From positions 32,001-96,000 of the forward strand of contig CBDFJR010000005.1 of the NCBI GenBank assembly GCA_965248535.1: a stretch of DNA of 64,000 nucleotides, in the 5' to 3' direction. Origin of the DNA: Phormidesmis sp. Lineage in GTDB: Bacteria; Cyanobacteriota; Cyanobacteriia; Leptolyngbyales; Leptolyngbyaceae. Shown here one piece after another: positions 12,203 to 13,881 of the stretch. The stretch's first letter is position 1. The number at the start of each line of letters is the position of its first letter. Made by a program: the position numbers and the translations under genes. Under the pieces are notes generated by a model. The model was not told where the DNA came from and did no database searches. It was given only the letters and a program-made list of their open reading frames with translations.

Positions 12203-12300
12203 AACCCTACGAAGCTGGAGTGAGAAGCAATCCAGGGCAGGCTGGTAGCGGCTTCTCACACCTTATAATATTGTTGTAAGCCTTTGTAGGGTTTCGGATT

Positions 12301-12516
12301 ATGCTGGCACATCGTATCGAAACGATCATTAATCAGGACAAAACGTTAACATTAGAAAATTTACCATTTCATTCTGGCGAACAAGTTGAGGTAATCATTT
12401 TGTCTCGCCCACGGAGAGAATTTGGACAAAACCGCTATCCTCTTCGTGGAACCACGATTCAATATGTTGATCCTACTGAACCTGTGGCGCAAGATGACTG
12501 GGAAGTTACACGATGA
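12301..12516 (+). CDS. Putative antitoxin (VapB-like)
   Basis: 71 aa, LTLENLPFHSGEQVEVIIL; overlaps the PIN gene by ATGA. Confidence 0.78.
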   Translation: MLAHRIETIINQDKTLTLENLPFHSGEQVEVIILSRPRREFGQNRYPLRGTTIQYVDPTEPVAQDDWEVTR

Positions 12517-12905
12517 TTGTACTCGATACTCGCATATGGATTTGGTGGGTGCATGGAGATGGAAAGCTTACCCGTGAATACTATGAGTACATTCAAGAAC
12601 AAGAATCACAGGGATTGGGAATCAGTGCAATTTCTTGCTGGGAAGTTGCCAAATTAGTTGAATATGGTCGGCTGACCTTGCCCAGATCTGTAGATAAATG
12701 GTTGGATGAAGCTTTGGCTTATCCAGGTATAAATTTTCTGGAGCTAACGCCACGCATTTGCGTAGAATCAACTCAATTACCGGGGGCTTTTCATCGAGAT
12801 CCTGCTGATCAAATCATCGTCGCAACAGCCAGAGTTCACAATTGCCCAATTGTTACAGTGGACAGGAAAATTCGAGAGTATTCATATGTTGAAACTCAGC
12901 CATAA
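12513..12905 (+). CDS. vapC: PIN-domain toxin, VapC family
   Basis: IVLDTRIWIW, ISAISCWE, HRDPADQIIVATA, VTVD. Confidence 0.92.
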   Translation: MIVLDTRIWIWWVHGDGKLTREYYEYIQEQESQGLGISAISCWEVAKLVEYGRLTLPRSVDKWLDEALAYPGINFLELTPRICVESTQLPGAFHRDPADQIIVATARVHNCPIVTVDRKIREYSYVETQP

Positions 12906-12908
12906 GCT

Positions 12909-13692
12909 ACCTAATCGGGTAACCAGGGGATTTTCTCCCCCAGTCCCCACGGCACCCCGCGTGCGGCTCCGCACGGGGCGCGTCCCCAGAAAAGTTTTAG
13001 ACAAGCCAGTTCAATAGAACTGAATATCCAGGGCTGGTTGTGCAGTTAAGCGCCGACAAAATAGCTCCCCCGTTCGGGTTCATCGCCCAGTCGAGCTTTG
13101 CAACTCCTCCCTGCTTTCTAAGGTTCAGCCCTTCACCCTGTCTCACCCATTACGGTGAGTGTTTGGCTACTATGACCTCTGCTGACTTCTGCTCAATCAT
13201 GAGTCCTGTTGCCATGACTCACGCTGCCTGAATGTCCTTAGGGTTCCGTGGCTCCCTAGCCGTTTCCCGCTAGACCTCAATCAGACTCCCGTAGACCCTC
13301 AGACCGCCCTTTGAGCAGATCTCCCCAGATAAGAACGTGAACTGTCTCTGCACAACTGCGTCATTTACTGTGTTCCCTGAACCAAAAGGCTTCATGATGT
13401 TGTGCTCACTTGCCACAGGAATCTCAGCCTTCTATGACGTTTCTGTCCGTCAGCTCGCAGATTTGCCGCTGGCTTCCTTCAGACCCTTCCTCGCGGAAAC
13501 GCCCTTACCTTAAGCTAGTCGTTGTCGTCACTCGGATCTTTTGGGATCATTTGGACGTTGGTTCTCCGACAGGGGACTTTCACCCCATTAGTTCACACCC
13601 ATGCTGGGCGTACACAACACAGTGGAGCGGACGGTATAAATCTCTTGCTTCGTTTCGGTGATATCTGCCACCGCTGAACAGGGTCGTTATGC
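12909..13692 (+). other. Integron attC recombination site (84 bp when reconstructed), interrupted by a group II intron
   Basis: Joining 12909-12913 to 13614-13692 gives ACCTAAC (R'')-AACAC-AGTGGAGCGGACGG...CCACCGCTGAAC-AGGGTC-GTTATGC (R'), an imperfect palindrome starting 3 bp after the vapC stop. Confidence 0.8.
12914..13613 (-). mobile_element. Group IIC (attC-targeting) intron, ORF-less, 700 nt
   Basis: Minus-strand 5' end GTACGCCCAGCATGGGTG...GGGGTGAAAGTCCC; domain V GCGCCCCGTGCGGAGCCGCACGCGGGGTGC with CGC triad; domain VI ending TTACCCGAT; exon junction TTGT/TAGGT; no RT ORF. Confidence 0.88.
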
Positions 13693-13881
13693 CGCTGAAC
13701 TATGCTTCTTAAAGAGCCAATGGAAAGAAGAAACATAGATGATTTAGATAAAGAGCTTAAACAGCTTATCTCATTCACTACAGACGGTCACTTTGTTCTG
13801 ACTACTTAAAATTGTGAATTTTAATACATCAATCCATTCGTCATTGCTGTAGACCAAGCATAGCGTTTATTTTGAGCCTCT

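Follow-up and report, generated by a model that had tools for sequence, protein, structure and literature searches.

The closest described relatives of the element reported here are the group IIC-attC introns of the S.ma.I2, E.c.I7 and Kl.pn.I1 types (Leon et al. 2010, PMC3001079), which carry an open reading frame (ORF) coding for the intron-encoded protein (IEP), measure about 1.9-2.0 kb, insert into the bottom strand of attC sites at TTGT/T (PMC7923331) and lie antisense to the cassettes. A CGC triad and this TTGT/T rule, which covers intron-binding sites 1 and 3 (IBS1/IBS3), have been stated for IIC and IIC-attC introns, and IIC-attC introns can still use terminators (PMC7923331); an integron position beside resistance genes is their classic setting (PMC3001079). 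[quoted passage not shown] The ORF-less TeI3 introns of T. elongatus go back to a single ORF deletion, keep subdomain IVa (DIVa) and rely on driver IEPs for their movement (Mohr, Ghanem and Lambowitz 2010, PMC2882425), and the ORF-less dnaN introns of Trichodesmium depend for splicing on a maturase encoded by a related intron that has an ORF (PMC12584367). In a 64,000-nucleotide (nt) stretch of a Phormidesmis sp. genome (contig CBDFJR010000005.1; the whole stretch is called the window below), we found a complete 700-nt group IIC-attC intron that lacks an ORF. This mini-intron is a conserved, proliferating derivative of IIC-attC introns in Leptolyngbyaceae that resembles a short interspersed nuclear element (SINE) and is a parasite of a known parasite. 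No account of a IIC or IIC-attC lineage without an ORF turned up in a full-text literature search, whose coverage did not extend to two studies that might bear on this (Leon and Roy 2009; Simon et al. 2008).

With the known IIC-attC introns the window intron shares a homologous ribozyme (about 68% identical over domains I to III, DI-DIII), the same start, a domain V (DV) with the CGC triad, the ACCCGAU end, bottom-strand insertion at TTGT/T antisense to cassettes, recognition of a hairpin plus a short IBS1 and occasional insertion after terminator-like hairpins. Unlike them, it has no IEP ORF, is multi-copy in its genome and occupies chromosomal or solitary attC sites of filamentous cyanobacteria, not resistance integrons, with no outward promoter detected. 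In common with TeI3 (PMC2882425) it has an ORF deletion in domain IV (DIV) that all copies share, an N-terminal ORF remnant, a retained DIVa, a cyanobacterial host, ORF-less copies that outnumber the ORF-containing ones and nested (twintron) insertions within the family. TeI3 introns are, however, of the IIB (chloroplast-like, CL) class, find sequence targets through exon-binding sites 1 and 2 (EBS1 and EBS2) and have intact helpers in their genome, whereas the intron described here belongs to class IIC, targets a DNA hairpin (attC) and has a broken resident helper. Like the Trichodesmium dnaN introns (PMC12584367), it is an ORF-less bacterial group II intron that would depend on a related IEP in trans, but those introns lie within a housekeeping gene, so that the host needs them to splice, whereas the window intron is intergenic and antisense to its neighbour. 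Halophile integrons and clusters of attC sites lacking integron integrases (CALINs) also hold group II introns in toxin-antitoxin-rich attC arrays, including integrase-less ones (Sonbol and Siam 2021, PMC7923331); these are IIB introns or truncated IIC-attC fragments, in contrast to the complete, conserved and proliferating ORF-less ribozyme described here.

The intron begins on the minus strand at 13613 with GTACGCCCAG (longer, GUACGCCCAG) and finishes at 12914 with GGTTACCCGAT (longer, GGUUACCCGAU). The 5' exon ends in ...CCACTGTGTTGT (upstream flank ...CCACUGUGUUGU) and the 3' exon opens with TAGGTAGC (downstream flank UAGGUAGC). These ends are exact, because the flanks of identical genomic copies diverge precisely at 13613 and 12914. 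Three Rfam models match the minus strand far beyond chance and in the order expected of a group II intron: RF02001 at 13334-13500 (127.8 bits, local E 1e-27), RF01998 at 13128-13223 (63.7 bits, local E 7e-11) and the DV-DVI model RF00029 at 12914-12983 (43.5 bits against a cut-off of 40, local E 5e-7). No reverse transcriptase (RT)-like ORF was present among the ORFs of at least 30 amino acids (aa) inside the 700-nt element, and a blastx comparison of the element with the IEP frames of five relatives retrieved only an extreme N-terminal leader remnant (best E 0.033). The anatomy of the intron is as follows.

12914 to 13613, minus strand: complete ORF-less group IIC-attC intron, 700 nt, 5' GUACG ... 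ACCCGAU 3'.
13324 to 13613, minus strand (intron nt 1-290): DI, defined by RNAalifold and covariation, closed by helices at nt 6-10 and about 286-290, and holding the RF02001 match.
13520 to 13528, minus strand (intron nt 86-94): candidate EBS1 region, ACGACAAC, in which ACGAC or ACAAC can pair with exon GUUGU.
13184 to 13323, minus strand (intron nt 291-430): DII (helices 17-22), a large branched domain that has a 9-bp helix at its base and ends in a hairpin with strong covariation.
13124 to 13183, minus strand (intron nt 431-490): DIII, inside the RF01998 match.
12984 to 13123, minus strand (intron nt 491-630): DIV remnant, made up of an outer stem, DIVa and a small variable hairpin that replaces the IEP ORF of about 1.3 kb.
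13048 to 13098, minus strand (intron nt 516-566): DIVa core, with the former IEP start codon ATG at 13081-13083.
12997 to 13083, minus strand: leftover reading frame that begins at the former IEP start and runs for 28 codons to its stop; only the first few of these codons are IEP-like (MNP.GG).
12952 to 12981, minus strand (intron nt 633-662): DV, 30 nt, helix 36, with the CGC triad at 12978-12980.
12914 to 12948, minus strand (intron nt 666-700): DVI, helix 37, in which the branch-point A (12920) is bulged and lies 7 nt from the 3' end.

An earlier note, made from these letters alone, had described a 700-nt minus-strand element with a GUACG 5' end, a DVI ending in CCCGAU and no RT ORF, which proved right to the base. 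Its short DV with a CGC triad is the 30-nt DV above, with CGC at DV positions 2-4, and its claim that both ends are intact agrees with the divergence of the flanks of identical copies at exactly these ends. The covariance-model search that it proposed gave the three minus-strand group II matches, and DI-DIII, whose failure to fold it had named as grounds for abandoning the idea, fold with covariation. DV itself has a 9-bp lower helix, an AC/AU bulge (AC in the window copy), a 3-bp upper helix and a GAGC loop, and lacks 4 nt that are present in the RF00029 consensus. The GUACG start is not peculiar to the window copy, as an integron intron on an E. coli plasmid opens with the same GTACGCCCAGCATGGG.

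We examined conservation of the fold in an alignment (A1) of ten ORF-less copies, drawn from nine genomes and sharing 77-100% identity with the window copy, using a consensus structure predicted by RNAalifold from the same alignment that was used to score covariation. The consensus fold has 210 pairs, and 97.7% of the cells are paired. Both sides had changed in 50 of the 210 pairs, compared with 26.2 +/- 2.9 in shuffles (0 of 500 reached 50) and with 6-17 when partners were slid by 1-3 columns. Compensatory changes were found in 6 of the 9 pairs of DII helix 22 and in 5 of the 13 pairs of DVI helix 37. These patterns indicate that the ribozyme fold is under selection across genera. All ten aligned copies have the same DIV deletion architecture, in which DNA homologous to roughly the first 27 IEP codons is kept and is followed by a short variable hairpin and then DV. 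A Shine-Dalgarno sequence, GGAGG, remains at 13106-13110, just upstream of the DIVa core. The 9-bp helix of the DIVa core is invariant across the alignment, and the mean pairwise identity of this core (90.3%) is the highest of any part of the intron, next to 89.8% for DV and 66.1% for the rest of DIV. The retention of DIVa, as conserved as DV, fits mobilisation in trans.

To place the intron among group II introns, we compared it with plasmid introns. Searches with blastn matched 373 plasmid records, mostly from Enterobacteriaceae, at 67-77% identity over nt 1-~510. The intron on E. coli plasmid NZ_LT985250, which is about 68% identical over nt 1-510, lies antisense beside qacEdelta1 and sul1, carries a 443-aa ltrA and sits at CTTGT/T; it has a homologous 30-nt DV, likewise ends in ...CUACCCGAU and is matched by the same three Rfam models, ordered and spaced alike. 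Within the Phormidesmis genome, the longer IEP piece (329 aa) of a full-length relative aligns without gaps to 322 residues of the plasmid LtrA, at 53% identity. Against PDB entries this piece scored 331 bits with the GsI-IIC RT, 261 with 7uim, 82 with LtrA and 74 with the IIB protein 6me0, and it contains RVT_1 and GIIM only, with no endonuclease (En) domain. No EBS2-IBS2 pairing is apparent, as identical introns follow 5' exons that share only (G)TTGT and the L'' box of the attC-like site at variable distance. These comparisons support assignment of the element to the IIC-attC lineage, as a non-autonomous derivative, and the Rfam matches together with the homology to the plasmid integron intron uphold the identity given in the earlier note.

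Size is the feature that would point to an integron-associated IIB intron (CL1 or class E) instead. Textbook IIC ribozymes are smaller than the about 560 nt that remain here without DIV, and DII is large (140 nt). IIB introns are also known from halophile integrons and CALINs (PMC7923331). We nevertheless regard a IIB assignment as extremely unlikely, given the direct nucleotide homology to a class 1 integron IIC-attC intron that includes the ends and DV, the CGC triad in a short DV, the related IEP that is closest to the GsI-IIC RT, and targets that share (T/G)TGT and a hairpin only, with no conserved IBS2 at a fixed distance.

The intron is inserted in an attC-like site, the elements of which are listed here.

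13614 to 13695, minus strand: 5' exon, an attC-like site, bottom strand (nhmmer 53.1 bits, E 1.1e-15).
13686 to 13692, minus strand: R' box, GCATAAC, from alignment with other sites.
13664 to 13675, minus strand: L' box, AGCGGTGGCAGA, from alignment with other sites.
13623 to 13633, minus strand: L'' box, CGTCCGCTCCA, from alignment with other sites.
13614 to 13618, minus strand: IBS1, (G)TTGT, at the 5' exon end.
12909 to 12913, minus strand: start of the 3' exon, TAGGT, comprising the IBS3 T (12913) and what remains of the split R'' box (GT/TAGGT).

The genome contains six copies of the mini-intron that are identical over 700 nt, all in different flanks, a 99% copy (C2:609289-609979) with a degraded 5' end and a 9-nt loss, and one further copy of 698 nt that is 85% identical. 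The sites of the six identical copies, the 85% variant and a full-length copy have the same orientation and an R'-L'...L''-R'' architecture. Their common layout is (G)CATAACG or GCTAACG, 8-10 nt, AGCGGCGGCAGA, a loop of ~35 nt, CGTCCGCTCCA, 5-8 nt and TTGT/TATGC or TAGNC, with the junction at TTGT/T, or at ATGT/T for the 85% variant. The sites carry R' and R'' boxes, because GT/TATGC, with the intron removed, complements GCATAAC; in the attC-like site family, R' GCATAAC pairs with R'' GTTATGC. A hidden Markov model (HMM) built from the intron flanks found 32 attC-like sites in the genome, 8 intron-occupied and 24 vacant. Two IntI genes scored above the TIGR02249 cut-off of 265 (467.9 and 466 bits); site arrays adjoin both, and the site bottom strand and the introns run opposite to the cassettes. 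The insertion claimed in the earlier note, at TTGT/T on the attC bottom strand and antisense to the cassette, is thus borne out at the window junction (GTTGT/TAGGT, antisense to vapC), and the identical ORF-less copies that it suggested looking for are these six, all in different sites. The element is also neither unique nor randomly truncated, with seven near-identical copies here and a deletion architecture common to 10 other genomes.

The 32 attC-like sites are scattered over two large contigs, mostly solitary or paired, and the only two short arrays are those beside the intI genes (C2:161487-162425 and C2:1131581-1132513). A 130-nt fragment at C2:378132-378261 is 88% identical to mini-intron nt 443-572 (DIII-DIVa) and lies ~900 nt from a vacant site (C2:377163-377253).

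We also looked for the intron in 90 genomes of the same order, all of one family, one per species and often draft. A match was found in 37 of the 90. Complete ORF-less copies (query 1-700 or 8-700, 77-90% identical) were present in G081, G071, G033, G084, G032, G023, G056 and G047, and near-complete ones in G064 and G025; these 10 genomes represent 9 genera. The Kovacikia-type genome G033 holds six copies that differ by 0-2 nt, each in a different attC-like site. Most copies in other genomes occupy attC-like sites at (T/G)TGT/T, the final slash marking the junction. One G032 copy follows a terminator-like hairpin and one G071 copy follows another hairpin, which fits the published use of terminators by IIC-attC introns. 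Across the phylum, the intron's 3' part turned up in 1 of 400 other genomes (2 candidates scored per genome; 3 home-family genomes in the sample).

One mini-intron copy has itself been invaded. At locus L103 (G084:C1:129300-132950), a second group II intron separates the DV of this copy from its DVI, which resumes directly after the inserted intron. The inner intron starts with GTGCG, its 527-aa IEP has a C-terminus of HNH type, and it possesses a DV of its own (RF00029, 49.9 bits). The same junction sequence recurs at L031 (G064:C509), in another genus, which suggests that the inner intron homes into the mini-intron.

These distributions bear on whether the copies are dead relics, that is, inert remnants of full-length introns that each lost the ORF, or copies spread by cassette duplication and not by retromobility. 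The genome has no intact cognate IEP, no promoter was predicted at the window copy, and the copy at C2:609289-609979 is decaying at its 5' end with its 9-nt loss, all of which a relic would be expected to show. Cassette duplication, however, does not explain the spread, as the attC flanks differ at every copy; and all copies share one deletion architecture, six are identical over 700 nt, and the compensatory changes across genera are not kept by inert DNA. We therefore consider the relic explanation improbable.

Much the most probable explanation, in our view, is that the element is a non-autonomous IIC-attC intron whose spread came about through retrohoming into the bottom strands of attC sites, an IEP being provided in trans. 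An RT/maturase ORF of about 1.3 kb has given way to a small hairpin, while the full ribozyme and the DIVa stem-loop are kept. By the proposed route, the intron would be transcribed from the minus strand and the intron RNA excised; the RNA would then form a ribonucleoprotein (RNP) with an IEP from a full-length relative, presumably bound at DIVa. The RNP would reverse-splice into the folded bottom strand of attC, occasionally into other hairpins, at (T/G)TGT/T, and the inserted intron RNA would be copied into DNA.

A number of observations weigh against this account. The structure scored for covariation was derived from the very alignment that was scored. Gene conversion or assembly polishing could help to keep the copies identical. 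The register of EBS1 is ambiguous, with two candidate pairings: ACAAC (nt 90-94) pairs perfectly with GUUGU, yet lineages with CUAAC there mismatch their own targets, whereas ACGAC/ACGCU (nt 86-90) tracks TTGT versus GTGT targets loosely (G at -4 in 3 of 6 versus 2 of 15 sites) and overlaps a helix for which more distant relatives show covariation. In a DI tree of 28 rows the base was unresolved and the mini-introns did not form one clade, some full-length introns interleaving with them; seven full-length introns, including the copy in this genome, formed a clade at 100/99 support that excluded mini-introns. TTGTT is present in 17 of the 24 vacant sites, which are still unoccupied. The reconstituted window attC has a folding energy of -10.8 kcal/mol (z +0.48), no better than shuffles. 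No sigma-70-like promoter was predicted on either strand between 12250 and 13950. The intron is covered to a greater depth than its flanks by RNA-library and metatranscriptome contigs, but the element is multi-copy, multi-organism and possibly DNA-contaminated, and such contigs cannot show splicing.

The remaining difficulties concern the helper. The genome has two RVT_1 matches and one GIIM match. The sole group II IEP gene is split into frames of 175 and 329 aa, compared with 447 aa in an intact relative, and the frameshift stems from an imperfect tandem duplication (intron nt 784-866 and 864-934, 83 versus 71 nt, 85.5% alike). The other RT (G000:C2:2381100-2382221; L021:1309-2430) has 373 aa and RVT_1 only (78 bits), is non-GIIM and adjoins a 279-aa repeat protein; it may be of retron or defence type. 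The broken IEP gene belongs to an ORF-containing relative of 1998 nt (C2:1673018-1675015), 79% identical to the mini-intron over nt 1-447, which sits in an attC-like site; its DV-DVI scored below the RF00029 cut-off. The cognate RT-encoding intron that the earlier note had proposed to search for therefore exists in full length, but its IEP gene is broken. Unlike in TeI3, no related intron with an intact IEP was found in the same genome, where the only GIIM-bearing gene is the frameshifted one.

Relatives present a similar picture. With the 329-aa piece as query, at E <= 1e-40, an evidently intact cognate IEP was found in none of the 11 genomes with complete or near-complete mini-introns, these being one-per-species and often draft assemblies. 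Six of them (G081, G071, G084, G047, G064 and G025) gave no cognate match at this threshold, and five (G000, the Phormidesmis genome, with G033, G032, G023 and G056) held only broken pieces. Intact IEP frames of 447-465 aa were present in G077, G035, G076, G030 and G024, in which no complete mini-intron was found; G035 has a mini-intron 3' fragment at a contig end. IEPs of other classes occur in G033, G081, G084, G071 and G047, but not in the Phormidesmis genome.

Since the helper is broken and many TTGTT-bearing sites are vacant, the copies in this genome are probably stranded at present. A more radical possibility is that ORF-less attC introns keep multiplying here and in G033 without a resident working cognate group II RT, which we think rather unlikely. 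If it were true, the drivers might be IEPs on transient incoming DNA, an unrelated RT, or the ribozyme alone, which would insert into single-stranded attC DNA and leave the rest to host repair; the mini-intron would then resemble a SINE in its hyperparasitism, outliving its autonomous partner and perhaps contributing to that partner's extinction.

Two side observations concern these IEP-bearing elements. The flanks of C2:1673018-1675015 resemble those of the mini-intron copy at C2:1133221. Separately, a 3' fragment of a different group II intron lies at G000:C5:1438998-1439412, where a 112-aa C-terminal, HNH-bearing IEP piece is followed by a DV-DVI match of 45.9 bits.

The persistence of the lineage across 9 genera, where most of the genomes lack an intact cognate IEP, could also be read as domestication, in which the element is retained to serve the host or integron, for example by locking cassettes through the split R'' box or by acting as an insulator or antisense RNA. 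Consistent with such a role, 8 of 32 attC-like sites are occupied, and published IIC-attC introns influence cassette expression (PMC3001079). We judge domestication very unlikely, as no outward promoter was found, the copies lie at non-orthologous sites with no common gene context, and the conservation is what would be expected of a ribozyme with an IEP-binding site.

The mini-intron offers a natural minimal substrate (ribozyme plus DIVa) for trans-mobilisation into DNA hairpins by a class C RT. The targeting of IIC introns is poorly understood, and the mini-intron is useful for asking how they recognise structure over sequence; it may also aid attC- or hairpin-directed insertion tools in which the RT is supplied separately. 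A quarter of the attC-like sites of this genome are intron-split, which should affect cassette excision and rearrangement, and the published cassette-genesis model includes a homologous recombination step for which these dispersed, identical repeats of 700 nt are ready substrates. The abundance of mini-introns where intact helpers are apparently lacking raises a question about parasite-of-parasite dynamics in bacteria.

At the window locus itself, the intron lies behind two neighbouring genes.

12513 to 12905, plus strand: vapC-like PIN-domain toxin gene (PF01850, 59.2 bits), its stop codon 8 nt from the intron junction.
12301 to 12516, plus strand: 71-aa ORF, putative antitoxin, overlapping vapC by 4 nt, with no Pfam match.

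The window copy splits a solitary, already weak attC behind this vapBC-like pair. The site is the only significant attC-like site in the 64 kb (next best E 0.059), and its R'' (GTTAGGT) mismatches its R' (GCATAAC), whereas an uninterrupted site of this genome folds as a long imperfect hairpin at -20.4 kcal/mol. The toxin-antitoxin cassette has no partner attC-like site nearby, and the idea that the broken R'' box immobilises it is largely moot, because the window holds no other attC-like site. A search for an orthologous empty site in congeners found none: of 7 congeneric genomes, 5 have the neighbouring amidohydrolase gene (6 matches), at ~73% identity, and there it is accompanied by neither the attC nor the toxin-antitoxin pair. 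One DNA-run contig joins 12914 to 13626 through 12 other letters, with only 30 letters on one side; it may represent a related site without the intron but is too weak to count. A terminator scan found nothing. No clear left cassette boundary was identified at 12240-12300, upstream of the putative antitoxin gene; this interval contains a 9-bp inverted repeat (GTGAGAAGC...GCTTCTCAC) and a ATTGTTGTAAGCC stretch.

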